From contig JAUCBJ010008915.1 in assembly GCA_032718475.1 (NCBI GenBank), forward strand, positions 1-64,000: DNA of 64,000 nucleotides, in the 5' to 3' direction. Numbering within the stretch: position 1 is the first letter of the stretch; each line of letters begins with the position of its first letter. Shown piece after piece: positions 1 to 60,255 of this stretch. A program made the translations under genes and the position numbers. The notes beneath the pieces are model-generated. The model saw only the letters and a program-made list of their open reading frames with translations, was not told the DNA's origin and searched no databases. This stretch comes from Nemertoderma westbladi (taxonomy: Eukaryota > Animalia > Xenacoelomorpha).

Positions 1-1451
1 CGCAGCGACGCTAGTCCAACTACTACGGAGGACGATGGTCGTTATATCGAACCGCCGATGTCCCAGGAGCAACTTACGCGTGAATTGGACTATCGAAAAT
101 TCACTGCTCGCTATACGCATCGTAATGGTACGCATATGGACTTCTTAACTACTGGTCATCCTATCGATTTACACGATACGGACGATGTCGACACCGAAAG
201 GGAAATGGTACTATTTAAATATCCTACCCAGCGGAGTCGGAATGATAAACTGAAAATCGAATGCGAAAATTCTATTCGAAATCGACTCGAAAGAGAAGAC
301 GTTAAAGAACCGGATAAACGCAGTAACTCCAACGTATATTTGGAATTCTTGAGAGAAACGTTGTAAAACCGAATAAATATCACCCGCGTTTCCCCTACAA
401 GACGTGTGTCTTTGGTATTATTGCGATGAATGCCCAAGACCCAACCAACAAATGGAAAGACATAAACATCCGCAGAGACATTGCTTTAAACACGGTTTTA
501 CTCGCTATATTTACGGGAGTTTCGAGCGAAACTTCTTCGATGTATCACCTACGCTCGCTCGATTCAAACGATCCTTAAATAAACCTATGATCAGAGTTCC
601 GGAATACTCGGTCAGACCTCCTCATTCCCTAGTTAGACCTCAGACTCTTGATCCTCCCGAACTGTACTCACTGTTCAAAGATCTAGTGTTACCCGAACAG
701 TTAGTCGGTGGCACTCCGGTTGTGGGCTCCCTAAATATTCACCCATCTTACCTAGTCGGATTGGGACGCGGACATATAATATCGCCATTCAACCGTATCA
801 TCGTCCCTGTTTAACCCGATACAACCTGTCACCGAGGCGGAGGAGAGAGTTGTACGAAACGCATTGGACACTATTCGTCAAAAGATCGGAAAAGGAACCT
901 ACAATTGTTTAGAGAAACATAAATTGCAGCAGCAAGTCCAAGCGGTAAACAAATTAGCTTTACTCAGTTCGATCAGGAAATCCGGAATCTCTAAGAAGAT
1001 ATCGAACTTGGACGGCTCTACTTTCTGCAAGAGTTTGGACAAATGTTTTCAACGACAAGCGGAGGAAAATCAGCTCGAGGAGAAGCATATCGATTCCGAC
1101 AGAGCCCGAGAACGCGGGTTGGAAAGAATCATCAAACCGAGGAAATTTCTCACTATACACGGTCCACCTACCGCTATCGTTCAGACGACCCGTCAGGGAC
1201 CAGTAAGAGCTGCTGTCTCAAAACGCGATCTCAAGGTTGTTCGACCTCATTCCACTGAGGTTGATACCGATCAACCGGGTACCTCGACCGGCGGATACAC
1301 CGACCGTAACCCTAAACCTTCTGATGCAATTGTATTGCACCCTTCACCCAAGGGTTATAGCCCTCCTAGTAAAGTGGCTCGCCCCAAAGAGAAAAGGACT
1401 CTTGCTAGCCTCAAAAAACTGCGTAAACGCCGTCCGCGCAAGAAAAACTAA
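1..1451 (+). pseudogene. Frameshifted 3' accessory coding region of the LTR element (ORF pieces 1-366, 404-814, 864-1451), unknown protein with basic C-terminus
   Basis: Homologous to 22874-24159. 7 of 17 differences in the first 64 codons are synonymous. Ends KKLRKRRPRKKN*. No recognisable gag/pol/env motif. Confidence 0.6.
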
Positions 1452-1529
1452 CTGTTTAGAGTATTTTTATATTTTAGAAACTGTGATTTTTTATATTTTA
1501 TAGAATTAAATCCCATTTTCTGGGAGCGG

Positions 1530-2694
1530 TGTAAAGGCTTTTGCGGATCTAGCTAGTTATTTTCCCCCGCAAAGTACTCTGTAGGTGTTTTAGCGGACAT
1601 AAAAAGCCGTTTCCTTACTGTACAGGTGTTTTAGTGGACATAAAAAGCCATTTCTTCTGTATGTGTACTTTAGCGGACATAACTAGCGATTTTATGTCGC
1701 AATACGCCAAAATACTCTTGATACAGTGTAGTTCCGATGACGACATCTATCAGCTGATATGTCCACGTGTAACTTTTTCTTTGTTCTTTGTTCGGCTCAC
1801 TCGACCAATCAGAGCGATTTTCTTTGTGTTGGACAGTGCATATAGAAACTCACGCAATTCAGTCAGTGTGTATCTTTCCTAAGCCTAGAACACTGGCTGT
1901 GGAATTATTCTGTGTTTCAGACTTTAGCCAAACATTAGAAGGCTTTGATCATAGAAACGTATAACTGTTATCAAACCAACTCAGTACATATGCATTATGC
2001 TTTCACCGCATTGTTTTACTGCTTTTACTGTCGGTTATTAATTGTATCAGTTGATGGAATATTGTTATATTTGGAGAATATCGATAAATAATCAGAAAAC
2101 CCCAATCTTCTTGATATACTGAAGGTTAGAGAGACCGGTTACAGATAGCAATTGCGACTTACCTTATATTGGTTTTGGAGTGAATTGAATGCTATTTCAT
2201 AGACCCTACATGTATCAGTTGCTGTTCTCCTTATATATGATTAAAATTAGTGAAGGTCGGCAGATCGGTGTGCAGCATTGTGCGGTAGTGTGCATGAGTG
2301 TGATAGATAACAAAGCATCTCCTAAAGAATGCGCTTTATACGTGAATCATTAGCCATCCCGTTGTGTTTAGTGTAAGTCATAACTCTGTTTACATACTTA
2401 GAGCGCCACGTCCTAAAGGAACTGTTAATATTTCCCGAAAGTGAATAATATTTGTCAGAGATTATATATTAACGATCAATCGAATAGTACAGTAGGCCTA
2501 CACCGCAATAAGGTCAGAGCTTCCGAATCCAGTCTCCCGGGTAAATCCAGCGGGTGAATGGTCGCGCATAGGCTGGCTTCGGCTAATGTAGTTTTATGTG
2601 TATCAAATACTTGTCATAGGCTAAAGTCGATTTATAACCTAGAAGACACCTAAATTTGGCAGGTTAAACTGCTAAAGGTCTAAAAGCGCGAACA
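1530..2694 (+). repeat. 3' LTR, subfamily 1 (1165 bp)
   Basis: TGT...ACA termini, upstream PPT, and clear similarity to the LTRs at 16738-17986 and 24238-25486, especially in the 3' half. Confidence 0.9.
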
Positions 2695-9747: not shown

Positions 9748-9825
9748 TAGGCTAAAGTCGATTTATAAACAAGAAGACAACTAAAATTGGCAGGTTAAAC
9801 TGCTAAAGGTCTAAAAGCGCGAACA
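9748..9825 (+). mobile_element. Isolated 3'-terminal fragment (about 78 bp) of the subfamily-1 LTR
   Basis: TAGGCTAAAGTCGATTTATAA...GGCAGGTTAAACTGCTAAAGGTCTAAAAGCGCGAACA is nearly identical to 2617-2694. Confidence 0.85.
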
Positions 9826-15154: not shown

Positions 15155-16737
15155 GAGAATAACTTCCGGTACTTAAATATGTTTAAATAAACTACTGGGA
15201 TGATAAGTTATGCTACTGTAGAAAGAGGTAATTGTTTTTAAGTGAGATTCAGTTTTAATTGTTACTTTTAAATAATTGTTTATTAATTAGCTTCTAATTA
15301 CATGATACTAGTATATTATTTGTGAGCTAGTAATGATGTACGGACAAATTAGTTTCTGGAATAGACACTTGCGCAATTACATTGGAAACACAGTTCTATA
15401 GCAATAAATAACTGGTATTTATGTATATATCTACTGTAGGTATATATTTAGTAAGGCATGTAGAACGTCTGATTTCTACAGGGCTATCATTATTATTTTC
15501 CGCTACAGTATGCAGTTTAGTAAAATCGGAACATTTGAATTCTTGCAGTCTAAGTTTCTAACTTTCTCCATAGCAGTACAGGCAAACGGTAGGCCTGGGA
15601 ATAACACTGTTGATGAATGTGTTGTATGTCCTCAATACACGTCATTATGCTATGTACAGCACCTCCCAGGCCCAGCAATCCTACAGATCACCTACACATA
15701 CATTATTTTTCCAACGATATTGAACTTGACCCTCGATTTATATTCTCACATTTAGTCTGTTAAGTCAATATAATTGTTTGGTGATACGGTAGTATTTCTA
15801 ATTTATTGGTCATTGTCTTAATTTAGTGGTGCAGTTTTGTTAGAGTGGAGGTGGGGTTCGTGGCACACTGCTGATGAGGAGAACCACGAATCCCAGGGTT
15901 CAGTGTTTAAATCTCCGAAACCCTTTTATTTTTATAAAATTTATTACTTAGACTTACCTTTTCGGCGAACAAAATGTCCTATATTTTTCGTAATTTATGG
16001 GATAGCCTATTTCGTGCAAAACAGTACTTACCGGAACCTGTAGTTACTGTATGGTTTGGTGTAATTTTTCTTGTGGTAGTTGGTTGGGTTATGTAGCACA
16101 AAATCGATTTGGTATTTTGTTTTTTAATGGGCCTTAGTGCCTGAGTACTAACAGTGACCCAAGTGGCCCTTAATGCTAGGTAGTATCTGAGGGAATAAGA
16201 CCCCATGTCCTATTTTATTGTTTTCATATCAATATAAAGGGGATCGACCAAGCAGCAATTCGCAATCCCTGCAAAATAAATTAGTTGAATTATACATCGT
16301 CGTGAGAAATTCTCAAAATGTCTATTAAAATATTGTCTTCTTAAATTGTTACTTTTTTGCTCGAATATCCGAAATCGGGAGAAAAAATTCCTTTTTACAT
16401 ATGGTAAAACAGGTAACCCAAAGGTTTGCATTGATAATACTGTTTTCCAAATAAAACTAGAAGGGGTTACAGTTACGTGTCTGGATAACTCAATGTTGAA
16501 AATACCCCCTTGGTCTATGCAGGGGACACGATGGGGCCGTTGGAAGGGGCAAGGGGTGCCCCCTACGTTGCTCAGTAACGCCCCCTTCCAGGGAGGGACT
16601 GTTGCTATAGACTGAAGGCGGTCTCCAGGAACGCATTCCATCCCGCCGACTCCAAGTTCGTCTACCATCTAGAGGTCGCCGGTCCTATTCTTCCTTCCAA
16701 CCTCCATAACATCGTCCACTTAATAACCAACAGCGGT

Positions 16738-17986
16738 TGTAAAAGCCTTTGCTGAATTGCCCCGTTATTTTTATTATCTTTTACATTAAAATACTCTGTA
16801 GTTGATTTAATAAGTGTAAGAGACCGTATTATTGCTGTATCGGTGTTTTTAGAGGATCTAAGACCTATTTCCTCCGTATGTGTACTGTGAAAGGCATATT
16901 TTATGATTCTATGGCAATTCGTGACGCAAAGGGGTGATAGCTACTCTTGAACAGTAGTTACTATGACTACGGTTAACAGCTGACATTCATACGTGTTGAT
17001 TTCCTTTGTTCTACGGCGTCTCTCAGTTCAGTCAGCCAATTAGAGCGTTTTTGTGGCTCCTTGTACAGAAAATTTCCGAGAAATGACGCAATGCCTATGT
17101 GCAGTGTTTACATTCAGTCCTGAGCCAAAGAAAGAACGGCTTGGAAGTATTTTTGTGCTTTACTGTTTTTTAGTCTTACACTAGTAGGTTTAATTATAAA
17201 GGGCATATATCCTTTAACCTAACGACTACCTGACTCATGGAATCACTGCTGACTGGTCATACATGCTGACTGCTGAAACATTGCAAACTCATAACAATCA
17301 GTGTTTTCATTGTTGTTTTATACTGCTATTTACCGTCGGTTCTTCATAATATGGTTGATGAATAATTATATTTGGAATAACGATAAATGACCCCGAAACC
17401 CAATATTCTTGATATACCGAAGGTAAGAGAGAAGGGTTACAGATAAACGATTGTGACTTATGTTGAAGTGGTTTGAAGTGAATCTAATGTTATTTGATAG
17501 ACCCTACATGAGTCAGTCTGTGTTCCTTTTATATGTGACTAAAATCAGTGAATATTGGCAGATTAGTGTGCAGTATTGTGCAGCATTGTGTATGAGTGAG
17601 TCTGTTAAAGAAGCAATTCCTAAAGAATGCGCCATATATGTGAATTATAATTAAGCCATATCGTTGTGAGTAGTTTAAGTCATAACTCTGTTTATATAGA
17701 TAAAGCGCCACGTCGTAAAGGAACTGTTAATATTCCCGAAGGTAAATAATATTGTCAGAGATTATATAATACTGTCAGTCGAATAATACATTAGGCTTAC
17801 ATAGCAACAAAATTAAACCGTCGAACCCAATCTCCCGGGAATATCCAGCGGGTGAATGGTCGCGCACGGATTGGTTTCGACTAGTGTAGTGAATCAAATA
17901 CTTGTCATAGACTAAAAAGCGATTTATTATCTAGAAGACATTCTAATTTGGCGGGTTAAACTGCCAAAGGTCTGAAAGCGCGAACA
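16738..17986 (+). repeat. 5' LTR
   Basis: Direct repeat of 24238-25486. CCAAT near 17036 and Inr-like TCAGT near 17117. Confidence 0.95.
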
Positions 17987-17998
17987 TTAAAGGATATA
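17987..17998 (+). promoter_or_regulatory. Primer-binding-site position, complementary to the element's own LTR (candidate self-priming site)
   Basis: TTAAAGGATATA is the exact reverse complement of TATATCCTTTAA at 17206-17217. No TGG (tRNA CCA complement) follows the LTR. Confidence 0.6.
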
Positions 17999-18284
17999 GC
18001 TTCTTTGTTGCAGTAAGCAATAAAGTTGAAAGTACCGGTCAACCGGTAAACCTGAACCGGTACATTCTGTAGGTCAGTAGGCCTAGCTGTCCTTCCTAAC
18101 CGGTGCTTCCGTATAAGTACACTAGTATTATTCGATTTGATTGTTGTATACCGGTAGGCTGTTTGAGGGATTAGGGATTGATCACCCCTTATTCCTTTAT
18201 ATGGTTTACTTATTTCTGTCAAGTTTTATTTATTTGTAGGCCAGTATTGAACAGAAGGCGTGTAAGCCTGATCAGATTGTACAG

Positions 18285-18840
18285 ACAATTTGTAGGCTGA
18301 GCTGTTGTCTGATTGCTGTTAAGTCTGAACGGATTACAGTGTGTGTAGAGCACTTGTCCGATTAAGTACGATTAGGCAGTAGGGGCAGCGAACGCTGTAA
18401 GGTAATCCCCCAACTAAAGAATAAGTCGCACTACTGGGTTAGAGCGCATACTCCCTAATCATTTCGGAGTCTGCATGTCCTGTGGTTTATTTAGGCTTGA
18501 GAGTGGTCTGCCATCGTTTAGTCTGTACTTTGTTTGTGTAAGTCTGTACGGGTAGCGTATAATTTTATTTAGATAATTTGTAGGCTGGATAGTTGTCTGG
18601 CTGTTATTAGGTCTGAACGGATTGCCGCGTGTGTAGATCATCTGTCCGATTAAGTACGATTAGGCAGTAGGGGCAGCGAACGCTGTAAGGTAATCCCCCA
18701 ACTAAAGAATAAGTCGCACTACTGGGTTAGAGCGCATACTCCCTAATCATTTCGGAGTCTGCATATACCGTAGTTTGTTTAGGCTTGATAGTAGTCTGTC
18801 AGTGTTCGGTCTGTATTTTGTTTGAGTAGTTTGTACGCGT
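18285..18840 (+). repeat. Tandem duplication (288-bp period) in the element leader with an identical 122-bp structured core
   Basis: 18355-18476 equals 18643-18764; flanks are diverged. Confidence 0.9.
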
Positions 18841-19789
18841 AGCGTAATATTTATTATTCAGAGTTTATGCGATTATCCGCAACATTCATTCCCCAAGTTT
18901 GTTCCTACAGTAATTGTGTTTGTTATACATACCGCTATAGTTAAATTAACCCCGGTACTACACGGGCTGCTCGGCGTAGGTAAAGACTGGTGATTTTGTG
19001 CATCGGTCACTCCAGCAGATGCCGTGGTTCTTTTAGCTGTTCAAGTATATTTAATTACTGATTATCTGTTGTACAAGTACTCGTACCTAATTTAGGGTTT
19101 AGTGTACAGTGCTTTCCGAAAATAATTAGTGTAGGCATTATATTTGTGTTGTAAAGTGGTTGATAGGCACATTCGATTAGCTCTATTAACTTCTAGGTAG
19201 GAACACTCCGTGATACATAACGTAGAACCTATAGCGATACGGCTATAGGTCGTCAGGCGGTGGTATTTTCCTATCTAGACAACGCAGTGTATTTACTACT
19301 ACTTATTATTTCCAATACCGTAGTACCCTGTCCGCTGTAATAATCAGTTTTCTAACCCTTTGTTAGGCTGGTTTGTAGACTTCTTGTAAAATTACCCTAA
19401 AAATTCGTATTTGTGTTTTTGTAAAATTTTTTGTGTTTATTTAGAGATTGTAATCTCACCCGAATTGTACGTAATTTGTAGTATTAAGTAACTTAGGTAA
19501 ATTAGTATTATTTGTTTTAGTGTCCTATACGTAACACTTCACTGAAAGCGTACCGCTTTGTGTAGTGATTACTCCCCAGAAATAATAACATTTATTTCAA
19601 ATATTGACAAAGCCCATTAAAACGGGTATATATATATTATAAATCAAATCTAACGATTTATAAATAGTAGGCCTACCATAAAACCATTAGGTCTCAATAT
19701 CAGTTGGACTACTGTTCAAATAACGGTAATAAAGTAAGTAAAGTAACAAGTAACCCTTGAAATTCAGAAATTCAGTTATTTAAAATAAT

Positions 19790-20210
19790 TGATATACCGG
19801 TATTTACAGTAGGCTTATTATATTTATTTCTATAAATTTTAGGTTGAAATCATACCGGTATTCTGTAATTAATTCTAGTTTGTAATTATACTTATATATA
19901 TACACTATAAGTGTAAACTGCATACCGGTATTTACGATAGGCCTATTATCTTTATTTCTATAAATTTAGGCTGAAATTATACCGGTACTTGTAATTAATT
20001 CTAGTCCAGAATTATATATGCTACAAACTGTGAGCTGTATACCGGTATTCCGATAGGCCTGTTATATATTTATATATATTTGTGCTAAAATTATACCGGT
20101 ATTCTGAGATAAACCTAGTCTGTAATAATACTTATATATACTATAAGCATACCGGTATTCTAATATATTATATATATATCACGCTACACTGAGTAGCAGT
20201 ACCGGTAATT
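19790..20210. repeat. AT-rich tandem repeat, about 120-bp units each with two TACCGGTA palindromes
   Basis: ATACCGGTA recurs about every 60 bp with alternating spacers. Confidence 0.75.
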
Positions 20211-20295
20211 AATTACTAGGCTAGCAGTTAATACTGAGTTACTAGACTTGCTCAGACTGTAATACAGCAGTAGACATTCAACTGTACACATAAGC

Positions 20296-21084
20296 ATGTC
20301 TGACGCAAAGCAGAACCTGTCAGACAGTCTACTAGATACAACCGAGAGTGAAGAGACATTAGAGAAACGACCTGCTCAACCGCAGCCACTACAGACCTAT
20401 GCGGTAAGAACTAGAGTAGGTTGGTACCTTACTGGACCTTCCCGTAGAACGCTCAGGGAAAGACTGCTTCAAGATCGCGTCTGCCAGGTGAGTGAATGGG
20501 AAGATGATACTAGTGAGGGAGACGACCCAACTGAGGGAACACCACACTCCTCAGATAATGACAATCTTAGCTCCAATGTAGATCAATGGAGATATTGCCC
20601 CAAGAAGTTTAATCCAACGGACATCGCTTCCAGAGGAGCAACTCCTCAAGAACTGACAGATACTATAGACCGGTTAGGTGAACCCGACTTCCTGAGTAAG
20701 GAGAATGAATGGCCTCCCCATCTTACTCCGACTGAGATTAGACCAGCCAAGGGAGCGGAGAAAGTCGAACCTGAAACCCGGACGGGTGGATCGGAGTTAT
20801 TTGAACCCGGGATAGATCTGTCGGTATTACATGTTGCCAGGGACGACGCCGTGGATCTGGGCCTCCCCTCCGCGAGTGGATCCTTCATGAAGATCAGAGA
20901 GAGCGATTGGAGCTCTGGAACATCAGACGTCTCGCAGGGACTCTCACCTCTCCTGCAGAGAGCGACGGACCACTATAGCTCCTGGAATCGGCTTTGTGAC
21001 GCCGTCATATACTTTGAGCGATGTTTCTATCGTCACTATTCCAGGACGAAGAGGAAACCTGGAATTGTATTCAGGATGCAGTGA
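20296..21084 (+). CDS. Internally deleted BEL/Pao pol remnant (262-aa open frame)
   Basis: YAVRTRVGWYLTGP (pre-RT motif), QWRYCPKKFNPTDIASRG...EPDFLSKENEWP (RNase H C-terminus) and YSSWNRL (post-RNase H motif). Confidence 0.8.
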   Translation: MSDAKQNLSDSLLDTTESEETLEKRPAQPQPLQTYAVRTRVGWYLTGPSRRTLRERLLQDRVCQVSEWEDDTSEGDDPTEGTPHSSDNDNLSSNVDQWRYCPKKFNPTDIASRGATPQELTDTIDRLGEPDFLSKENEWPPHLTPTEIRPAKGAEKVEPETRTGGSELFEPGIDLSVLHVARDDAVDLGLPSASGSFMKIRESDWSSGTSDVSQGLSPLLQRATDHYSSWNRLCDAVIYFERCFYRHYSRTKRKPGIVFRMQ

Positions 21085-21744
21085 CTCAATCACCCAGTCG
21101 GTCGTTTGTGTTTATCGGAAGGGAATGGAGGACTCTCCGGAAACTGTGGAAGGCAAGATTCTCTTCCCACGACCACCTCCCTAATCCTTCCAACATCTAG
21201 GGACTCCATAACGTAACAACATATGGAGTGGGTGTGTGACTCTATTATTTTATATTATTTTATTATTTTTATATTTATGTATGTATTACTATGTAATTCT
21301 ATTATAATCGTTTTCTTTAATTTTATTCAGTAGAATGTTATTTTAGCGATTATTTAGTAGATTAGTGCAATATATATTCGCGTTTATTACTTAATTACGT
21401 ATATATTATATTTAATGCGACGGCAAGAAATAATTCTTTTCCTTCTTCCTTACTGTCCGTATTACATTACAAATACGTAACTACAGTAAGATGAAATGTC
21501 CGTACTTATTAAAGTACAATAAAGCCACTACTATATTCAAGTATTATTGGTAGGCAGAGTATTAGGAATGCAAAGTTCAGATCCTCGTGTCTCGGCTAAA
21601 CCAAGCTCTGGGTAGACCTTGGAAACGACTTGCCTCTTCACACTGACATTGCTTCGTGCGATATTGCTCTCATACCGTATATTAAATAATACATATAGTA
21701 GCGTGATGTCCCTTTAACAGTAGCGTATAACGCAAAATAAATCT

Positions 21745-22045
21745 GTTAAACCCTTTGACCATCTGTAATTCTAGTCGATTAAGATATCGTGGCACCCACC
21801 GATATACTTGAAAGACAAATTATAGAATCAGTGGTTAACGTCACCAGACAAGTTCTGGAATAAATCGGTGCCCATCTCAAATATTAATTATTTAATATTT
21901 GCAAATCTAATACGTCAAAATCTGTAAAATTCAGATCCTTCAACAATTCTAGTCAATTAAGATATCGTAGCATTTACCGATATTCTTAAAAAAGACAATT
22001 GTCATAGAATTAAGGATCTTGTGTCCCTAGACATGTTCTAGAATC
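21745..22045. repeat. Diverged tandem duplication (about 178-bp period) inside the LTR element
   Basis: AATTCTAGTC.ATTAAGATATCGT.GCA...ACCGATAT.CTT at about 21767 and 21945. Confidence 0.7.
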
Positions 22046-22873
22046 AAAATATGTCCATTTAATTATCAAATAATAAAATTTCAGGGAATAAATTTAAATT
22101 CATGCCTTTTAATGAATTTAATAAATTGCCATTTTTACGCAATTTATAAAGTTCCCAAAATTCCATTAATTAATAGATCAAGGGAGCGGAGATTTGTCTT
22201 ATTATGCATATGAGTGTGCGAAAGTCTCCCAAACATAGTCAATAGCCGATAAAATTCATAAAGTCATGTATAAAACAGAACATTGACTATTAAAGAATAC
22301 TATTAAATAACATCCCAGATCTGTATGCATTGGAATCACCCTAATTCTACCGCTAGCTTTGCATAATGTCACCATAGCAACAACCACGCTAGAATTAGAA
22401 TTGAGTTAAAAGAACAATAGAAAGCTTGTCCCATTGAATAGCATAGGGAATAAATAGCGCACTACTAGTATCCAAGGATACATAATAATACAGTGACATT
22501 CTGGAAGGCATTGACTAACGGACAAATGGCCCGAATGTGTGTAATTTGTGACAAGTTGTGTGTGTGGTATTTGTGAGTTTATAGGTGAATGTTACTGCTA
22601 AGGTGTGTTTACAGTAGCTAGTCGCAATCGTAAAGTAACCTAACTCTCCAAGGAAAACCTGAAGTACATCTAAGCCTTTGGGACGGACAGTCGAGTGACT
22701 TGTGCCGGTTGTCGTTGTCGTTGTGCGGCTACGTCGTTGGCGAAAGTACAGCGGCGACGACACATCGGCGCTGAGGATCTCGTACTGTCCGGGGGTTAAT
22801 TGGAGTAGGCAGCGACGTTCGCTAGCCTAAATATAAACTCCTTATAATATGGATAAACTCATATATAGCAGAC

Positions 22874-24159
22874 ATGACGGAGTTGATAGAAGATGGTCTT
22901 GGTATCGGGGAGCGATATACTCTACTTTTACAAGCGTTTGTTGATAGCTTAATACGCGGCGACGTTAGTCCAACTGCTGCGGAGGACGATGGTCGTTATA
23001 TCGAACCGCCAATGTCCCAAGAGCAGCTCACGCGTGAGTTGGACTATAGAAAATTCGCTGCTCGATATACGCAGCGTAATGGTACGTATATGGGCTTCTT
23101 AACTACTGGTCATCCTATCGATTTACACAATACGGACTATGTCGACTATATATCCTGCCCAGCGGAGTCGGAACCATAAACTGAAATTCGAATGCGAAAA
23201 TTCTATTCGAAATCGACTCGAAAGAAAAGACACTTAAGAAACAAATGGACGCGGTAACTCCAACGTATATTTGGAATTCTTGATAGAAGCATTGTAACAA
23301 CAAATAAATATCACCCGCGTTTACCCTACCAGACGTGCGTCTTTGGTATTATTACGATAAATGCCCTAGACCCAACTAATAAACGGAAAGACATAAACAT
23401 CCACGTAAACCGAAACTTGTTGACGTATCACCTATGCTCACTCGGCTCGAACGATCCTGGAGTAAACCTACGATCAGAGTCCCGGAATACTCGGTCAAAC
23501 CTCCTCATTCCTTAGTTGGACCTCAGACCTGCGATCTTGGTGGTGTCGCGGATCCTCGCGGACTGTATTCACTGTTCAAAGATCTAGTGCTACCCTAACA
23601 ATTAATCGGTAACACTCCGACAGTGATTTCTAGCTAGCCGCCCATCTTACCTAGCCGGATTGTGACGCGGACACCTAATATCACTATCCAACCGTATGGT
23701 CGTCCACGTTTAACGCGATACAACCCCTCATCAAGGGGAAGGAGAGCGTTGTACGAAACGAGTTAAACGCTATTTTATAAAGATCAAAAAGGAAACCTGC
23801 GTTTGTTCAGATAAACGTAAGTTATAACAGTGAGTCCAATCGATAAACGAATTGGCCTTATCTCAATTCGATTGGGAAATCCAGAATCTCTAAGAAGTTA
23901 TCGAACTTGGACGATCCTATTCTCTGCGAGAGTTTTTGGATGAACGTATCCAGCTACGAGCGGAGGAAAATCAGCTCGAGGAGAAGCATATCGAAACGGC
24001 AGATACCTCGACCACAATCCTACACCTTCTGATGCAATCATATTGCACCCTTCACCCAGGAGTTATGGCCCTCCTAGTAAAGTGGCTCCCCCCAAAGAGA
24101 AAAAGACTCTTGCTAGCCTCAAAAAACTGCGTAAACGCCGTCTGCGTAAGAAAGACTAA
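22874..24159 (+). pseudogene. Decayed 3' accessory coding region (second copy)
   Basis: ATG at 22874 after TATA-like sequence. Aligns with 1-1451 with deletions and extra stops. Ends KKLRKRRLRKKD*. Confidence 0.6.
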
Positions 24160-24237
24160 CTGTTTAGAGTATCTTTATGTTTTAGAAACTGTGATTTTTA
24201 TATTTTATAGACTGAAAATCCCATTTTCTGGGAGCGG

Positions 24238-25486
24238 TGTAAAAGCCTTTGCTGAATTGCCCCGTTATTTTTATTATCTTTTACATTAAAATACTCTGTA
24301 GTTGATTTAATAAGTGTAAGAGACCGTATTATTGCTGTATCGGTGTTTTTAGAGGATCTAAGACCTATTTCCTCCGTATGTGTACTGTGAAAGGCATATT
24401 TTATGATTCTATGGCAATTCGTGACGCAAAGGGGTGATAGCTACTCTTGAACAGTAGTTACTATGACTACGGTTAACAGCTGACATTCATACGTGTTGAT
24501 TTCCTTTGTTCTACGGCGTCTCTCAGTTCAGTCAGCCAATTAGAGCGTTTTTGTGGCTCCTTGTACAGAAAATTTCCGAGAAATGACGCAATGCCTATGT
24601 GCAGTGTTTACATTCAGTCCTGAGCCAAAGAAAGAACGGCTTGGAAGTATTTTGTGCTTTACTGTTTTTTAGTCTTACACTAGTAGGTTTAATTATAAAG
24701 GGCATATATCCTTTAACCTAACGACTACCTGACTCATGGAATCACTGCTGACTGGATCATACATGCTGACTGCTGAAACATTGCAAACTCATAACAATCA
24801 GTGTTTTCATTGTTGTTTTATACTGCTATTTACCGTCAGTTCTTCATAATATGGTTGATGAATAATTATATTTGGAATAACGATAAATAACCCCGAAACC
24901 CAATATTCTTGATATACCGAAGGTAAGAGAGAAGGGTTACAGATAAACGATTGTGACTTATGTTAAAGTGGTTTGAAGTGAATCTAATGTTATTTGATAG
25001 ACCCTACATGAGTCAGTCTGTGTTCCTTTTATATGTGACTAAAATCAGTGAAGATTGGCAGATTAGTGTGCAGTATTGTGCAGCATTGTGTATGAGTGAG
25101 TCTGTTAAAGAAGCAATTCCTAAAGAATGCGCCATATATGTGAATTATAATTAAGCCATATCGTTGTGAGTAGTTTAAGTCATAACTCTGTTTATATAGA
25201 TAAAGCGCCACGTCCTAAAGGAACTGTTAATATTCCCGAAGGTGAATAATATTGTCAGAGATTATATAATACTGTCAGTCGAATAATACATTAGGCTTAC
25301 ATAGCAATAAAATTAAACCGTCGAACCCAATCTCCCGGGAATATCCAGCGGGTGAATGGTCGCGCACGGATTGGTTTCGACTAGTGTAGTGAATCAAATA
25401 CTTGTCATAGACTAAAAACCGATTTAATATCTAGAAGACATCTTAATTTGGTGGGTTAAACTGCCAAAGGTCTGAAAGCGCGAACA
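24238..25486 (+). repeat. 3' LTR
   Basis: Direct repeat of 16738-17986, preceded by the PPT and followed by TSD GCGGT. Confidence 0.95.
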
Positions 25487-26016
25487 GCGGTGCCAATAGC
25501 GACGCTATTCTAACTACCTTCGGCAATCATTTCACTACGGCGTTTAACGCTGACTTTTATTAATTAAATTATTTATTTGCAATAAAATATAATATAATTA
25601 AATAATATTAATTAAATAATATATCTTTATAGAATGCCATGGTTTTACCTTCACATAAACTGAAGCTTTAGGCCTACCGTTACTTGTTATTATCATCACC
25701 AAACATCGCATTGTACAGCACGCCCAAACGTCAGACCATAAGTACAAGTACAGTCATTAGTCAGACAGTACAAGCATGTTAATTAATTGTACCCTACCCA
25801 GGTACCTGTACAATTAATAGGCTTACTTGGTAACCCTGCTTCGGTACTTAATCACAAGTTTGCAGCACTTACCCAAACTTGTGCCCCTACTGTCCTACAG
25901 CAGCACTAAGTATGTAATAGGCCTACCCTACAGCAGTACAGGCAGTTGGGCAGACAGGTAATATCATTTTGTATTTCATATTTTATTCACTTGTTGCGAC
26001 AAAAATAACATAAACA

Positions 26017-48528: not shown

Positions 48529-51042
48529 TTATTGTAAAATTGGTGCAATTCTACTTTTTCTCATCTTAGCAAACTTTTTTTCGAACACAACTTTCTCCTG
48601 AAATGGGTCATACGGGAAACATTCGGACTTGGATATCAAAACGCCGCGTTCCCCCTCTCTCGTTTTCTCTGTGTCGTTTGGTGTGCGATATTCTTCCTTC
48701 ATCGACTTGCAACTATCTCCTCCCTTTGTCTTGCGATTCTTTGAATGAATTGGACTCTCTTTATGTGCCGATGTTGGACTCTTTGGAGTGTCCCTGCTCC
48801 TCAAACTCGGCTTGCCATGTGTCCCGTCCATAGGAAGATCTTTCAGAACGTTGGGGAAAAGACTTTTCGGGGCACCAAATTTATCATCTTTTCCTATGCA
48901 TTTTCTCACACCCTCCTGCAGGATATGCATATCCTTAGGAGATACTTTGTCTAAAGACAGATGACCATTCACAAATTGCTTCACCAAGTCCATGCACCTA
49001 TTCTCTATTGTCACTACCCACGGTTGTCCACTAACTGAAGTCTGGGCTGTTGCATCTCTAGTTCTCACCTTCTGGCATCGCACGCAGCATATGCGCTGGA
49101 GACTGGCGTTATCTCTCTTGAGCCAAGCCTCATTTCGTCTCGCCCAACCCGGTAAACTGGCGGGAGTTTGTTTCACGGAATACGGCAGGCCATCCGACGC
49201 AGACCCATTCATCTTCCGCAAATGCGATATAGCACGCGGTGATTCACTGAGAACAGCACCTTCTTCTGATAATCTTACATGATCATTCGTTTGTCGATCA
49301 TATTCGCGAGATTTCCCATAACAAGTCTGAGATTGGTCTCCGACATTTCTCTCTAATCTTTCAATTCTCCTCTTCATTTTTGCATTTGTAGCGCGAAGTT
49401 GCTCGTTAATAATCCGTTCCGTCAAATGACGACTTAACAACTTGCCAGCCATCACATGTATGTCTCCGACCTCAATGGCCCCGGGGGTGTCTGGTGAACA
49501 CTCATACTCACTGAGATCGAGAGGGTTTATTTGATATTCTTTGTCCAGCGGCGGTGATTCTTTGTCCAGTAGAGGCTGGACGATTTCCACGATGTTTCCG
49601 CAATTGGAGTTGGCCTTGCTCTTCCATTCCGCTAACTGAAGGCTCTGAATTTCTATCTTCTCTTTAAACTCAAGATTTTGCAACGTTAGACTTCGATTGC
49701 GTTGTTGGAAGTCACTCTGAATGAAACTTAGAGCTTTTAAAGCCAAGTGCTGTTGAAGTGAATCGTTTTCCAAATCGCATTTCATGCGCTTCATAATTTT
49801 TTCAATATCGCGAACTCTCACAGGGACTTTTTGAAGGTGCGCCTCGTTTGTATACTGTAGGATTTTCTCCGCAGCTTTGGTCCACATATTCTCCTGTTCA
49901 GCTAAAATACCCAGAGAAGCATCATCGTGGAGTTTTGCAATCTCGGCGACACTCCCTCTTATCTCGGTAAACAACTTTTCTCTCTGCCCTACGCCTGTCG
50001 CTTCATGTTTACCTTCATCGGACGTGGCGTCGGATGACTTCATTTTCCTGAGACCACGCTTGAGTTTTATTAAAGCTTCCCGCACCTTTTCTTCAATGTA
50101 ACCAACTCTGACATTGTCTTCTTTCAGTCCCTCCAGTTGCTCTAAGCCCCTTTCCTCTTTGTCTCTAAACCAGTCATGGAGGGACGTTATTAGTTTTTCC
50201 TCCTGTATGTGTCTGCGTTGAAGTTCTGTTGCTTGGTTCCAATACTTAACCATAATAGCCTCTATCGATGACGACAGGCCCTGATCTTCAGTGCTTTCTC
50301 CTTCGACTCCTAGATCGCAAAAATAGCTCTTGATACCATCTGATTTTTTAGACAAATCCCTATGAAAAAAAACAACCTAGTAAGAAGGGAAAAAATAGCA
50401 AGGGGGAACTTTTACATTAATAATAATTTATTGTGTTGTAATTGCACTTTTTTGAATTGAAATTATTCTCTATTGCAGTAACCGCATTTAGCAAATAAAT
50501 AAATTATTGACCATCAATTTTACTCACCTTGAAATCCTATCCAATTCGGCGATGACATCATCCATGGAATTGATTTTAATATCAACGACGACTTCCACAT
50601 TATTTTCAGGTGGACCGGATTTTTTTTCAGTTTCCTTACTGACCAAAAATAAATCAAACGCAGTTTCTTCAGCAATAGACCTCATACTTGCACTTGGCAT
50701 GGTAACTTTACTGCAACCACTGGTCACTTTGGCCCTATGTATGGACGTGGATTTAACATGAATCGTTGAACTTTCCTTGCTGCTGTATGTGTTTGACCAA
50801 GAACCTTGACTGCTGACAATCTGTGAACTTTCTATTGACATATCTTTGGAGCTCGGTACCATAGACCTACTTTGTGATTGTATTAGCGAAACAGATCGAC
50901 CTTTCTTGGGAGATGCACTGCCGATATCCGAGGGTGTTTTATCTTTCGTGATTGAAACTGTAACATTGCGACGGGATTCCACACTACGTCGACTGTGTAT
51001 GGAGGGAGTGTGAGAGTTACTGGAATCACTGTTACACATCAT
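48529..51042 (-). CDS. Unrecognised coiled-coil protein with Ser-rich N-terminus; exons 51042-50528 and 50359-48529 (781 aa)
   Basis: Donor AG|GTGAGT and acceptor TTTTTTCATAG join the 172-aa and 608-aa ORFs in frame. Confidence 0.75.
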
Positions 51043-51189
51043 CTTAGTATTTTGATCGAAGGTTTACAAATTTACAATCCAGTAGTTAATAGTTATTTGT
51101 GATCTAATCATTTACCACCACCAATTCAAGGTCTGTAAATAAATAAAGCGGACCCTCTCACACTGAGTAACATTTGTCGTGTCTGCCAC

Positions 51190-53380
51190 TTGCGTCTGCA
51201 ACCTGTGTCCACAACTTGTGTCCACAACTTATGTCTGCACCTTGTATACACAACTTGTATCTGCAACTTGTGTCCACAACTTGTGTCTGCAACTTGTATC
51301 CACAACTTGTGTCTGCAACTTGTGTCCACAACTTGTGTCTGCAACTTGTATCCACAACTTGTGTCCACAACTTATGTCTGCACCTTGTATACACAACTTG
51401 TATCTGCAACTTGTGTCCACAACTTGTGTCTGCAACTTGTATCCACAACTTGTGTCTGCAACGTGTGTCCACAACTTGTGTCTGCAACTTGTGTCCCCAA
51501 CTTGTCTCTGCAACTTGTGTCCACCACTTGTGTCTACAACTAGTATCCACAACTTGTGTCTGCAACCTGTGTCCACAACTTGTGTCCACAACTTGTGTCT
51601 GCAACTTGTATCCACAACTTGTGTCTGCAACCTGAGTCCACAACTTGTGTCCACAACTTGTGTCTACAACTAGTATCCACAACTTGTGTCTGCAACCTGA
51701 GTCCACAACTTGTGTCCACAACTTGTGTCCACAACTTGTGTCCACAACTTGTGTCTACAACTAGTATCCACAACTTGTGTCTGCAACTTGTATCCACAAC
51801 TTGTGTCTGCAACTTGTATCCACAACTTGTGTCCACAACTTGTGTCTGCAACTTGTGTCCCCAACTTGTGTCTGCAAACTGTGTCCACAATTACAACTTA
51901 TTTCTGCAACTTGTGTCCACAACTTGTGTCAGCAACCTGTGTACACAATTACAACTTGTGTCTGCAACCTGTGTCCACAACTTGTGTCTGCAACCTGTGT
52001 CCACAACTACAATTTGTGTCTGAAACTTGTGCCTACAACCTGTGTCCACAACTTGTGTCCATAACTTCTGTCCACAATTTGTGTCTGAAACTTGTGCCTG
52101 CAACCTGTGTCCACAACTTGTATCCACAACTTGTGTCTGCAACCTGTGTCCACAACTACAATTTGTGTCTGCAACTTGTGCCTGCAACCTGTGTCCACAA
52201 CTTGTGTCCACAAATTATGTCCACAGCTTGTGTCAACAACTTGTGTCTGCAACCTGTGCCTGCAACCTGTGTCCACAACTACAATTTGTGTCTGCAACTT
52301 GTGCCTACAACCTGTGTCCACAACTTGTGTCCATAACTTCTGTCCACAATTTGTGTCTGAAACTTGTGCCTGCAACCTGTGTCCACAACTTGTATCCACA
52401 ACTTGTGTCTGCAACCTGTGTCCACAACTACAATTTGTGTCTGCAACTTGTGCCTGCAACCTGTGTCCACAACTTGTGTCCACAAATTATGTCCACAGCT
52501 TGTGTCAACAACTTGTGTCTGCAACCTGTGCCTGCAACCTGTGTCCACAACTACAATTTGTGTCTGCAACTTGTGCCTGCAACCTGTGTCCACAACTTGT
52601 GTCCACAAATTATGTCCACAACTTGTGTCAACAACTTGTGTCTGCAACCTGTGCCTGCAACCTGTGTCCACAACTACAACTTGTGTCTTCAACTTGTGCC
52701 TGCAACCTGTGTCTACAACTACAACTTGTGTCTGCAACTTGTGTCCACAACTTGTGTCTGCAACCTGTGTCCACAACTACAACTTGTGTCTGCAGCCTGT
52801 GTCAACAACTTGTGTCCACAACTTGTGTCTGCAACTTGTGTCCACAACTTGTATCTGCAACCTGTGTCCACAACTACAATTTGTGTCTTTAACTTGTGCC
52901 TCCAACCTCTGTCCACAACTCGTGTCTGCAACTTGTGCCTGCAACCTGTGTCCACAACTACAACTTGTGTCTGCAACCTGTGTCCACAACTTCTGTCTGC
53001 AACCTGTGTCCACAACTACAATTGGTGCAAGTTGTGGATACAAGTTGTGGACACAGGGTGTCCACAACTTGTGCCCACAACTTCTGTCGACAACTTGTGT
53101 CTGCAACTTGTGCCTGTTACCTATGTCCACAACTTATGTCGACAACTTGTGTCTGCAACTTGTGCCTGTTACCTATGTCCACAACTACAACTTGTGTCTG
53201 CAACCTATGTCCACAACTACAACTTGTGTCTGCAACTTGTGCCTCAACCTGTGTCCAAAACTACAACTTGTGCCTGCAACCTCTGTCCACAACTTGTGTC
53301 CGCAACTTGCGTCTGCAACCTGTGTCCACAACTATAATTTGTGTCTGCAACTTGTGCCTGCAACCTGTGTCCACAACTTT
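51190..53380. repeat. 13-bp-based satellite (ACAACTTGTGTCC / GCAACTTGTGTCT) with higher-order units
   Basis: Continuous array with 143-bp and 272-bp higher-order periods and a short inverted patch at about 53026-53058. Confidence 0.97.
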
Positions 53381-54058
53381 TTAATGGCTGTAGCAACTTT
53401 TCAAAAATGTTGCAGCATGAGCTGTCGGACTTCCAAATACACAGAAACTTTCATCAAACTTTTGTTGCGAAATGTTGCTGAGATAGTCCAGCAACTTATC
53501 GCTGACCCCCTCACACTAGGCACTTTTTGTACCTCACACAGGAACAAGTTGCATCAACAAAAACTTAATCCGTGTGAGGGGGGGGGGGGGGGGGGGGTGC
53601 TAAGTTATTCTTCGAAATATTTGGTATTGTTCTTGACCTATGGTACTTTTGTAGGCCTACATTGTACATTACTCTGGATTGTATTAGTTTCCATAGTACT
53701 ACAGTACCGACACGTGTAGCACTAGTGAACTAAGGCTATCACATAGTAGGTATTTCAAGACAGGCCCGTGGTATGGTCTCCTCTTTGGAAATTAGTCATT
53801 GACTAAAAAACCCGATTGATGCAAAAAAAATTGAGCACCATACTGATTGTGGTGCTTAAAATTAATTCAGACACGATTCCATTTCAATATACATGTAAGA
53901 TATACAAAATGTTCTAAAGTGTTCTTGATGTTAGCTAGTGTTTTTTTCAAGGGTAGCTATAGTGTTTTTGAAAAAAATTACAGATTAAAAAAATAAACTT
54001 TAATGTGTGTTTTGTTATTGATTAATGTTAAGCAACATTGGTAGATATTCATTTTTAT

Positions 54059-55539: not shown

Positions 55540-58121
55540 CAAGTAGGTCTACAAGTAGGTAGCAGCAGCGTGAGGCTGACAGCAAGTCCCTAAACGATGC
55601 GCTAGATAGGAGCCTACCATATCGTTCAATATTACGACTAGGCAAACCCCGAGAGGATGGATCTCCACGCCCAACCCTTGTGACGTTCTCTTCACCAGAA
55701 GAGGCTACAAATGTTCTTGAGCTAAGATCGTTCATGTACCGAAATATGACTCTTTATTTCGACCGTGACCTTTCGGCTTTTGAACGTGAAATGGCTTTCA
55801 AAGCCCGCCAAAGACGACGTGAGTCAGGATCGAGGCATAACAGAAACTCCACCCTTAACAGAGCCGTTACAACTGAGAAAGTCAGTAATATGGTGACGGA
55901 TCATGATGAGGCTACAGCGATGGATTGACTAGTGGTCCCACATTTTGAGCCCATCTATTACCCAACTGAACTGTCTGAGCCCACCTGTACGTATACACTG
56001 CCAAACCCCATCGACCCTGATGGAAATGAACTGTATAACATGCCATTGGCCCCCTCCAACCCAGACAGCAATCGGACAGAACTCATTGACCGGGACATCA
56101 ATCCATTGGTCCATGCCAACCTCGACAGTTATCTGCCAATCCCCCCCGCCACTCCAATTGTTTTGTCTGACCCTCAAATCAATGGCACTGTGATACGCAC
56201 TGAGTGGATGTCGCTTCCATTTATTATAAACAACAATGTAAATGGGTATGAAGGAAAGCATAAAATACTGCGGGAATGGGTGGAAATATATGATAATGTT
56301 GCTGTAGTTACGATTCAAGAGTCAAAACTAAAAGCTGATGTCTCTGATGGGAGCATTACAATTGATGATTTTTATCTTTTTCGGCTTGATAGAGACATTG
56401 CTAACTTCAAGGAAAATGGGGGTGGAGGTCTAATCACTTATGTAAGCAAAATGTGGTGTAATACAAAACCTAGCATAATTGCTGCTGTCTCCAAGCCTGA
56501 TTGTGAAGCCTTAGCTCTGGTCTGTCGTCCAAGATACCTTCCATCGAAATACAACTCCATTGTTATTGTCAATATCGAATATCTACATACGACCAAATGC
56601 AAAAAGACCAATAGCAAGAAAGGAGCTACGTAAAGTGATGAACACCATCATGGTATCCAAACCAAAAGGATACTTGATTATTATCGGTGATGTAAACCAA
56701 CCAAAAGTGAATTACTTAGACTCTCTTAATCTAGTGAATATGGTCAATGAGTTTACATTTATTCGTTCAGAATCACAATTAGATGTGGCCTATGTCACTG
56801 ATGCCTACCCATATCATTGCTCCACATCAGCTCCTATTGGTAGAGTGGATGATCATAAGTCTATCTTTCTTCAACCAAAAATTGACTGCAGCAATGCATA
56901 TAAACCTAAACCTAGCTACAAAAAGGCTCGTGTTTTCAGCGAGGAAAAAATTGCTGAAGTAAAACAAATTTTTGATGAAACAAATTGGAATGTTTTCCAA
57001 GACACCACTAGTCTAGATAAAAGTGTGGAAGCTACAGAGAGCTATATAAAGTATATCTTTGATCAACACTTACCTCTAACTAAGATGAAAGTACATAACT
57101 TTCACATACGTCAACCTATTCCTGGTGTTAAAGGTATTCTAGCTGAGAAAAAGAAAGCTATTAGCATGTAAGGATAATGTTAAGAGAAATGAGTGCCAGA
57201 GAAAAATCAACAAACTGATCTTTGATAAACGGCAAATGGAATTCACCAATATGCCAAAAACTCAACTGTACAAACTATCTGATACCTGTATAAGGAAAAA
57301 ACACCAAGTTCATAAATTTGATGAAAATGAAGTCGAGAGTCTTAATAATTTCTTCACTAGATTTAACGAGGATGTGAATAAGGATGAGCCTATATATAAT
57401 GGTACCACCTATGATAATGATATTCATGTTGATCCGATTGTGGTTGAGAAATTAATACGTAAATTGAAACCGAATACAGCCCAAGGTAGTAGCATTGTTT
57501 CTGCAATTTGCTATAAAACCTTTGCAAAAGAACTTTCTATACCTTATGCTTCACTATTCAGAGATAGTTTCCATCAACAAAAATACCCGCAATGTTGGAA
57601 TACGTCTTTGACATCTGCCTTACCTAAAAGATGTGATTCATCATTTTCGGATAAAACCAGCTTCAGACCAGTATGTGTTACTCCTTTGAGTTCTAGGTGT
57701 TTAGACAGATTGGCTCTAGATATATTTCGTAATGCAAGTAAATCCACTGACGATATTTTTCAATTTGCATACAAAAAAGGTTATTCTACAGCTGATGCGA
57801 TCTTATACCTCCTTCATCAGATTACAAAAGCGTTAGATGAAAGACACACAATTGTAAAATGTTTATTCATAGACTACTCATCTGCTTTTAACACAGTGTT
57901 ACAAAACAAGTTTTTAAACAGACTTTTAGACGAATTACCAATAGAGATGCGTTGGTTGGCCAGCTGGCTTCACTCATACATGAGTGGTTTCTCTCAATCG
58001 GTTAAATCTGGAAAAAACATATCTTCCTCTATTTCACTGAAAGTTGGTTTTCCCCAAGGGGGTCCTCTTAGTGGACCTTTGTTTACCAAAGACACTGATG
58101 AAATTCGAGCTGACGATGGAT
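55540..58121 (+). mobile_element. Rex/Babar-like LINE: ORF1 end and ORF2 (AP endonuclease plus RT N-half), frameshifted, broken before the catalytic DD
   Basis: TIQESKL, GGGGLITYV..WC, CRPRYLP, IIGDVN, QFAYKKGYSTADAI, LFIDYSSAFNTV and GFPQGGPLSG motifs. Confidence 0.88.
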
Positions 58122-58961
58122 GGATGGTGACCGGAGCGCCAGTACTATCTTTCATTATTATGAAGTAATAAGGGCGGTGGGTGGGGTAGGTGGTGAACAC
58201 TATTTATAGGGTGGAGGGAGGGTCTAGTATATTACTTTAGGATATTTGATTTCTTTGCAATATAGTTTAGCTGCCTCAGTCTTATTTGTAATATGTTATA
58301 CATTATACCAAATTATATCAAGTTTTAACATACTACATTGTCTACCTGTAGGTGAAATATACAATGTAGGGCTCATAATATATTTATAAATAGATTTAGT
58401 ATATTTACATTGTATAACAGAGTTAATTGATACTATTACGGTATTATACTAAAGACGCCGCTTTGATATATCTGATCAAATGTGCAATTTCTTGTATATT
58501 ATCTATTTCATTATCTTGGGTATATCATTCAATTTCTAAAACTATAATAATAAACATTTACTTTACTTCTTGTTTACTCGCATGGATATATTGATATAAA
58601 ACACTTCAGTATAATATCTTATAGGGCCAAACGCAGATTAATGGGAATAATATGTTTAATTATTATTACAATTGGCACATTGAAGTAAGTAGTACATGAG
58701 TTTGATAAAATAATTATGAATCCGTATCTTATTCTACTTTGTCTATATGGTTATGTTATATAATAATGTTACTTTATCACTTTGGTTTAAACCGATCTCC
58801 TTTACTATTACTTACTACTTATACTACTACTACTACTACTATTACTACCACTGCTACTGACTACTACAGAGTTATATATTATAAGAGGATGGGGTTCGTG
58901 ATTATTAGTTATTATACAAGTGCCCCTCGGCTATAGAGAGTCCACCCTCGGTTGCTTACTG

Positions 58962-60255
58962 GGTGTTTAGACAGATTGGCTCTAGATATATTTCGTAATG
59001 CAAGTAAATCCACTGATGATATTTTTCAATTTGCATACAAAAAAGGTTATTCTACAGCTGATGCGATCTTATACCTCCTTCATCAGATTACAAAAGCGTT
59101 AGATGAAAGACACACAATTGTAAAATGTTTATTCATAGACTACTCATCTGCTTTTAACACAGTGTTACAAAACAAGTTTTTAAACAGACTTTTAGACGAA
59201 TTACCAATAGAGATGCGTTGGTTGGCCAGCTGGCTTCACTCATACATGAGTGGTTTCTCTCAATCGGTTAAATCTGGAAAAAACATATCTTCCTCTATTT
59301 CACTGAAAGTTGGTTTTCCCCAAGGGGGTCCTCTTAGTGGACCTTTGTTTACCAAAGACACTGATGAAATTCGAGCTGACGATGGATCCCTAGCAAAATA
59401 TTCTGATGACTCAAGAAATCTACAGGCGATAAGGCATTCCGCAGAAAATGACAAATATAAGTCTAACATACAGCGAATTGTTGGGCTATCACATGGAAAA
59501 AACTTAAAGATAAACGCAAAGAAATCTGAAGAACTATGTTTCATTCCAATGAACTTTAAAGAACAGAAAGTTCTAGATATCGCAGAAGAAATAATCTACA
59601 TAGATGGTGACGTGGTTCCGCGTCCGTCCGAAGTGAAACATCTTGGAATATGGATTGCAAATAATCTATCATGGAAAACTCATATATTTAAACTTATAAA
59701 AAGGGTAAATTACATAGTTCGCCAATTCAGTTTTTTCATCCGGTTTGCAAATAAAGATACAAAAATATTTCTCTTTGAAACTTACATTGTACCACAATAT
59801 ATGTACTGTGCGGTTGCGTGGGTCCCCCTCATTCCAAAGAATCTCAAAAAGAAGTTAAAGAGGCCACTGTCGCTGTTTGCCAAACACTCAAAAATTGAAA
59901 AACAAGTTTACATGAACATTATAAATGATGCGTTTTCCAAACAGTTCACCAACATGGTAAAGAAGATTGTGGACACGCCGAGTCATCCTCTACACGCTTT
60001 CATTACGGGTTGCCAATCAAACTCCACCGTGACTCGCAATAATTACAGAATGCCTGATACACGGACCAAGATGTTTCATAACTCTTTCGCTCCAAGTGCT
60101 ATTAGATATCTAATAAACAATGAGATACCGATTTTCATGCAATGATATTTTATTTATTTTTATGTAATCTGTGTTTGTGATTAACGGTAATTTTCCTATT
60201 TACATTCCTCCATATGTACAGGAAATAAAACGAATTATTCATTCATTCATTCATT
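58962..60255 (+). mobile_element. 3' part of the same Rex/Babar-like LINE (RT with KYSDD, C-terminus, tail)
   Basis: Open frame to 60145, KHLGIWI and PSHPLH motifs, AATAAA near 60223, (ATTC)n tail. First 426 bp duplicate 57696-58121. Confidence 0.9.

Follow-up and report, generated by a model that had tools for sequence, protein, structure and literature searches.

How does an LTR retrotransposon start reverse transcription when the DNA that follows its 5' LTR offers no place for a tRNA to bind? A locus of Nemertoderma westbladi (Xenacoelomorpha) raises this question. We analysed one window, a stretch of 64,000 nucleotides (contig JAUCBJ010008915.1 of assembly GCA_032718475.1, positions 1 to 64,000 of the forward strand), which contains an element derived from the BEL/Pao superfamily (Table 1). 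The most likely answer, judged from sequence, is a Tf1-like self-primer, a mechanism already known elsewhere, here in a superfamily whose described mode is tRNA priming.

The element spans 16738-25486. Its LTRs are 1249 nt each and 98.9% identical (14 differences), its interior measures 6251 nt with a single sizeable open reading frame (ORF; 20296-21084), and a 5-bp target duplication, GCGGT, bounds it at both ends. The intact duplication and the high identity of the LTRs indicate that a copy with a non-tRNA site transposed recently. The LTR differences are unevenly spread: the first 469 nt hold one of the 14 and the last 780 nt hold the other 13, of which five are packed into 34 nt near the LTR end. 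The boundary of the uneven distribution lies near the RNA start predicted below. Gene conversion might have produced this pattern, as might recombination of two RNAs. The 2.3-kb leader carries internal tandem duplications at 18283-18862 and 19793-20179, which comprise two 288-nt units at 87-88% identity and shorter units at about 75%. Splice-donor-like sites occur at 17421-17428 (AG/GTAAGA) and 17740-17747 (AG/GTAAAT; AG/GTGAAT in the 3' LTR), between the candidate primer and its site, and similar sequence occurs in the sister LTR; they could give rise to a spliced RNA that omits the primer site.

Table 1. Features of the element and of its sister subfamily (positions in the window)
Feature	Position	Strand	Remarks
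Sister-subfamily 3' LTR	1530..2694	+	79% identity along its final 684 nt; the window does not reach its 5' LTR
Sister primer segment ATAACTGTTAT	1961..1971	+	gapless alignment to 17207-17217; three contigs carry its exact complement after the terminal CA
LTR 3'-end fragment, 78 nt	9748..9825	+	sequence match to the LTR
Target-site duplication GCGGT, 5' copy	16733..16737	.	repeated at 25487-25491
5' LTR, 1249 nt, TG...CA	16738..17986	+	98.9% identity to the 3' LTR
Predicted alternative partner of the LTR end 17975-17984	17152..17161	+	with RNA starts upstream of about 17165, predicted to prevent the primer duplex
Predicted self-primer, 11 nt	17207..17217	+	17206 pairs too in this copy; RNA start inferred
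U5-stem segment, predicted partner of the LTR end 17978-17985	17858..17865	+	forms alongside the primer duplex; p about 0.86 for 17978-17982
Non-tRNA primer-binding site	17987..17998	+	adjoins the 5' LTR end; exact complement of an LTR segment
Hairpin after the primer site	18003..18025	+	18003-18011 with 18017-18025; from folds and family contigs
262-aa ORF of BEL/Pao polyprotein scraps	20296..21084	+	clear match C-terminal to Peptidase_A17, weak match to a post-protease motif; without reverse transcriptase or integrase
Broken 3' reading frame, kind unassigned by homology	22874..24159	+	counterpart at 1-1451 in the sister copy
Short polypurine tract GGGAGCGG	24230..24237	+	same letters precede the sister LTR
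3' LTR	24238..25486	+	second primer-segment copy at 24706-24716; AATAAA at 25306
Target-site duplication GCGGT, 3' copy	25487..25491	.	matches 16733-16737

The 12 nucleotides that begin at the first base after the terminal CA of the 5' LTR (17987-17998, TTAAAGGATATA) are the exact reverse complement of 17206-17217 within that LTR. The sequence-only reading had drawn attention to this match and to its primer-like geometry beside the terminal CA, and both observations held. A match of at least 12 nt at +1 arose in 1 of 5000 dinucleotide-shuffled LTRs, and the count was again 1 of 5000 when any position from +1 to +5 was allowed. Apart from 24706 in the 3' LTR, there is no second occurrence of the 11-mer 17207-17217, and 17987 is the one place where its complement is found; in the DNA of both subfamilies compared below, the complement is contiguous over 11-12 nt and matches from +1. 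Two of the 6213 internal start positions have a 12-nt match to the LTR (17987 and 19708). The duplex of site and segment is A-U-rich, and the best duplex of its 25-mer with the LTR (-20.3 kcal/mol) ranks 38th among 249 internal 25-mers. The pairing is thus unusual in its exactness and position, not in its strength. The first TGG downstream of the LTR lies at 18202, 215 nt off, so a site for the CCA end of a tRNA is absent, in agreement with what had been read from the letters alone. No 18-nt site of the BEL/Pao type, for tRNA-Arg or tRNA-Gly, was found here or among the site variants listed.

The beginning of the window (1-2694) holds the 3' end and 3' LTR of a sister subfamily, whose alignment to the present LTR predicts a primer site with changes at positions 1, 5, 6 and 8 relative to this copy. 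The stretch is present in six public runs from four studies, and contigs from four of these runs were aligned to the junction 17958-18050 (n=992 in run X1, 336 in run X3, and 10 and 8 in the others). Three of them (two in X1 and one in X3, from two independent studies), found among the 17 listed of 24 loose-end rows, carry LTR-end sequence upstream of the shared leader hairpin. After the terminal CA, these three read 11 bases that form an exact reverse complement to 1961-1971. Watson-Crick pairing with the sister segment is regained at all four changed site positions (U-A to A-U, A-U to C-G, G-C to A-U and A-U to U-A); the probability that a random four-change variant restores all four is 3.7e-5, or below 1e-3 over the 24 loose-end rows. 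In this sister form, pairing ends after 11 nt and the twelfth base is unpaired. The covariation of site and segment that had been put forward as a check was thus borne out, with four of four changes of the second form keeping the pairing, in a comparison that consists of two forms of the site on unlinked contigs: the sister-type contigs are short and end before the segment 730 nt upstream, and site and segment stand on separate contigs. A few letters of their LTR end differ from 1530-2694, indicating that they come from a relative of that copy and not from that copy itself.

The same earlier reading had predicted GTTATAC in the sister site. Its first five letters are present, and the register is the one given by the LTR alignment at 1961-1971. 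The stretch 2695-2704 (AAGGTTATAC) does contain GTTATAC and could pair with the sister segment over 8 bp; we rejected it as a primer site and treated it as flank because the adjacent LTR is a 3' LTR, because its register is 3 nt off, and because two contigs link the DNA from 2700 on to different upstream sequence. Across most of the family the site is that of this copy. One listed change inside it exceeds 2% of depth in X1 and X3, namely 17991 A>C, at 25% of depth in X1 and 27% in X3. A C at 17991 would mismatch this copy's segment unless 17213 were G, and the sister segment has that G. Among the variants listed from contigs on the sister LTR, none falls inside 1961-1971.

These comparisons bear on two rival explanations. 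One is that the match arose by chance in A+T-rich, partly palindromic DNA and that the site is a decayed remnant, as the further 12-nt match at 19708 and the ordinary duplex energy would allow. The location at +1, the single success in 5000 shuffles, the family-wide conservation and the four matched changes argue against it; the junction contigs have already largely refuted this explanation, which we regard as extremely improbable. The other concerns the origin of the primer. Plus-strand synthesis of LTR elements copies the primer into the primer site. A self-primer would therefore keep the site matched to its own segment, so that several matched changes could appear without paired mutations.

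A host RNA (a tRNA half or fragment, or another small RNA) might instead prime, the LTR match being secondary or coincidental. Half-tRNA and internal tRNA primers are known in Copia elements, according to the available parts of two papers (PMC6317226, PMC5445492), and one site sequence prevails in most of the family, as a host primer would cause. However, a constant site would be expected of a host primer, and in the second form 4 of 11 bases have changed in exact step with the sister LTR; four matched changes among 11 bases fit the prediction for a self-primer. Rfam gave one sub-threshold match in 16700-18600 and no family near the primer site, and the site motifs are missing from the 7 supplementary files of one paper tabulating tRNA primer sites. 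Priming by a host RNA is accordingly very unlikely in our assessment. ARAGORN detected 0 tRNA genes in the window, and a scan with the LTR-end pattern returned 0 loci in metagenome contigs and 0 in viral contigs.

How far the predicted duplex extends depends on what lies downstream of the site. In whole-RNA folds, 18003-18011 pair with 18017-18025 at p 0.86-1.0 in four of five folds and 0.58-0.88 in the fifth. At 18007, where this copy has a G.U pair, all four runs show A-U at 91-100% of contig depth, suggesting that the hairpin is kept in the family. The sequence-only reading had extended the primer duplex to about 22 nt. Such a duplex can be drawn in a two-strand fold, but its distal half competes with the family-conserved hairpin for the same bases, so an extension beyond about 14-16 bp is unlikely. 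The solid core of the modelled duplex is 11-12 bp, and about 14-16 bp are possible in this copy.

The folds also point to where the RNA may begin. The predicted duplex has a mean p of 0.93-0.95 for RNA starts at 17180-17208 and of at most 0.05 for nine starts at 17000-17160, such that it dominates the predicted fold only if the RNA starts no more than about 30 nt from the segment. Being nested-structure predictions over about 900 nt, the folds are of modest weight. A start near 17117, as once suggested, falls into the unfavourable range: in the fold from 17110 the LTR end is taken up by 17152-17161 and the site has no partner. A TATAAA at 17195-17200 had been named as a possible cause of a downstream start. 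It is present in this copy, where it could start RNA downstream of the segment, but it is not kept in the sister LTR, which reads CATAGAA. Furthermore, the 11-mer begins with A after T in both subfamilies, a weak indication of a pyrimidine-purine start. On the strength of the folds, the CATAGAA of the sister and the A after T in both forms, we infer an RNA start at or just upstream of 17207. Elsewhere in the predicted fold, both sides of the U5 stem are kept in the sister LTR, the primer segment can form a local hairpin of -8.5 kcal/mol (17180-17235), and a second, weaker LTR partner of the site at about 17611-17621 emerges only with the primer segment omitted (p about 0.3).

If the main start instead lay downstream of the segment, or if the segment sat far inside the RNA, it might act in trans, cut from a second RNA such as the 3' LTR copy, a read-through RNA or a solo-LTR transcript. 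The TATAAA just upstream of the segment and the long 770-nt loop would suit this arrangement, and the family, which is very abundant and diverse in contigs aligned to the sister LTR, should make other LTR transcripts plentiful. Yet the TATAAA is missing from the sister LTR, the sister pairing ends at 11 nt as expected of a 5' tip, and the cis fold is favourable with starts at 17180-17208. The complement also runs uninterrupted from +1, so a primer produced by splicing out an LTR intron is not required. We hold a trans primer to be unlikely.

It is also conceivable that the pairing is a conserved RNA structure serving packaging, dimerisation, translation control or a switch, with priming accomplished by other means. 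Matched changes indicate selection on the pair, or copying of it, and not its function; moreover, the site is flanked by other predicted stems (the U5 stem and the hairpin 18003-18025), and the available parts of a study of fungal GalEa elements describe a conserved hairpin site at the primer position whose role is unknown (PMC5445492). Against this stands the fact that the helix begins at the first post-CA base in both forms, precisely where a primer is required, and that no other primer site is visible. A structure unconnected with priming thus seems quite improbable.

Self-priming remains our preferred reading. We think it probable, on sequence grounds, that 11 nt located at the 5' end of the RNA, or close to it, prime in place of a tRNA in a Tf1-like manner. 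Transcription would start at or shortly before 17207. Bridging a 770-nt R-U5 loop, the first 11 or so nucleotides would then base-pair with 17987-17997 (p 0.95 in the predicted fold), and by analogy with Tf1 the RNase H of a reverse transcriptase from a coding BEL/Pao relative would cut after 17217. The freed 3' OH, beside the terminal CA of the LTR, would start minus-strand DNA, and the plus strand would begin from the polypurine tract at 24230-24237. In the next cycle, any mutation of the LTR segment would presumably be copied into the primer site. Since this copy lacks a reverse transcriptase, cutting and priming would take place in trans. Of the original proposal of BEL/Pao-derived, Tf1-like self-priming, the BEL/Pao origin and the matched changes stood, the 22-nt duplex and the start at 17117 did not, and the priming itself is what we infer from them. 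At the level of the family, the balance tips towards a high-copy, tRNA-free BEL/Pao family that is self-primed over a 770-nt loop and whose site is rewritten in each cycle, resulting in private subfamily pairs, with copies that borrow reverse transcriptase and RNase H included.

The assignment to BEL/Pao rests on fragments. A homologue search with ORF 20296-21084 found 37 relatives at E<=0.001 (best 1.2e-6), nearly all of which match about residues 90-150. Among the 11 longest of the 37, which were scanned for domains, Peptidase_A17 is present in all 11 and DUF5641 in 6. Pairwise alignment of the ORF to the stretch after Peptidase_A17 gave E values of 2e-12 and 5e-9, and the ORF also aligns weakly to a motif about 600 residues ahead of the Peptidase_A17 stretch. 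It thus has the appearance of distant parts of a BEL/Pao polyprotein fused in frame, with the reverse transcriptase and most of the Peptidase_A17 region skipped. Pfam gave no match in the 6 internal ORFs scanned, this one included, and no reverse transcriptase or integrase was found in the 64-kb window with 8 full polyproteins as queries. The features by which BEL/Pao elements are recognized are therefore found in part: the pair of LTRs and the polypurine tract ahead of the 3' LTR are present, polyprotein sequence of the BEL/Pao type is present as fragments only, and the gag and pol genes (PR-RT-RH-IN order) and a reverse transcriptase phylogeny are wanting in a copy without gag, reverse transcriptase and integrase. 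To judge from what it encodes, the element is a young non-autonomous BEL/Pao deletion derivative and not a complete member, a classification that follows from the lack of reverse transcriptase and integrase. The broken 3' reading frame (22874-24159; 1-1451 in the sister copy) comprises about 450 codons with a basic tail at its end in both subfamilies, and had no match in Pfam, the homologue search or Atlas.

Self-priming has been described in other LTR elements. In Tf1 the RNA's initial 11 bases serve as primer, and RNase H cuts between bases 11 and 12, as stated in the available parts of three papers (PMC7175516, PMC4600332, PMC5341516); the pairing length of 11 nt in the sister form equals the Tf1 primer length given in the first of these (PMC7175516). 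According to the accessible portion of a further paper, self-priming has been shown for Tf1 and proposed for Tj1, Tf1/sushi, plant Tcn1 and plant Copia TAR (PMC6317226). Like Tf1 and Tf2 of Schizosaccharomyces pombe, Tj1 of S. japonicus and the Tf1/sushi group, the present element lacks a tRNA site and has, adjoining its 5' LTR, a site complementary to about 11 nt of its own LTR. Unlike the Tf1/sushi elements, which belong to Ty3/gypsy, it is BEL/Pao-derived, its primer and site lie 770 nt apart in relation to a 1249-nt LTR, and this copy lacks a reverse transcriptase, so that cutting and priming would be supplied in trans. Its RNA start and cut are predictions. In place of the Ty3/gypsy (chromovirus) polyprotein of Tf1/sushi elements, it has BEL/Pao-like scraps. 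The element is not a Tf1/sushi member; at most it works like one.

The earlier reading had treated self-priming as a trait of the Tf1/sushi-type Ty3/Gypsy elements. It was indeed shown there for Tf1, but it has also been predicted in the plant Copia TAR lineage; the Tcn1 and TAR cases, as far as the available text of the source goes, show that self-priming is not confined to a single superfamily (PMC6317226). As in the present element, self-priming in Tcn1 and TAR was inferred from a complementarity that replaces the tRNA site, in the same portion of that source (PMC6317226); these elements differ from ours in belonging to other superfamilies and plant hosts, and those cases are predictions as well. 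The fungal GalEa Copia elements, with their Conserved Hairpin Site, resemble the present element in having no tRNA site and a conserved hairpin just downstream of the LTR. In the part of the source at hand, however, no LTR complement to the site was found in GalEa, whereas here one is present and the hairpin follows the site and does not replace it (PMC5445492).

For BEL/Pao itself, the ICTV profile of the Belpaoviridae describes tRNA priming, with an 18-nt site for tRNA-Arg or tRNA-Gly, and calls replication poorly understood (PMC8742986). The element agrees with this family in its TG...CA LTRs, its polypurine tract and its protein scraps with Peptidase_A17 relatives, and its LTR length of 1249 nt lies at the upper edge of the 0.2-1.2 kb range of that profile (PMC8742986). 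It differs in having no 18-nt tRNA site (PMC8742986), gag, reverse transcriptase or integrase. A survey of BEL/Pao elements contains no occurrence of PBS, primer, tRNA or priming (PMC3118150), and the available parts of five further papers tie self-priming to no BEL/Pao element (PMC5443660, PMC3601003, PMC5445492, PMC6934838, PMC13524379). Literature searches likewise brought up no article about a self-primed BEL/Pao element. The earlier statement that self-priming is undescribed for BEL/Pao therefore agrees with the literature covered, a body of work that has most subscription journals, the Repbase reports and nearly all supplements outside its scope.

If the element is self-primed, tRNA-free priming would extend to the third LTR superfamily, and such a BEL/Pao family would inform the question of a single ancestral or several separate origins of self-priming. 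One means of controlling LTR elements is through tRNA fragments aimed at the primer site. Self-primed elements, if they exist here, would evade this control. Elements of this kind would also be overlooked, or called defective, by annotation that requires a tRNA site.

The remainder of the window gives some view of the host genome. Host genes with long open frames (gamma-tubulin-like, RPN2, BART domain and PP1-like) occur within 26014-61543, which suggests few introns. RPN2 is at most 66% identical to animal and other proteins among the 120 matches listed, pointing to a host lineage that is poorly sampled among animals. Remains of a non-LTR retrotransposon, with matches to endonuclease and reverse transcriptase, lie at 55929-60145, where the reverse transcriptase part is duplicated 1266 nt apart, and a long satellite array with a 13-bp period occupies 51036-53719.
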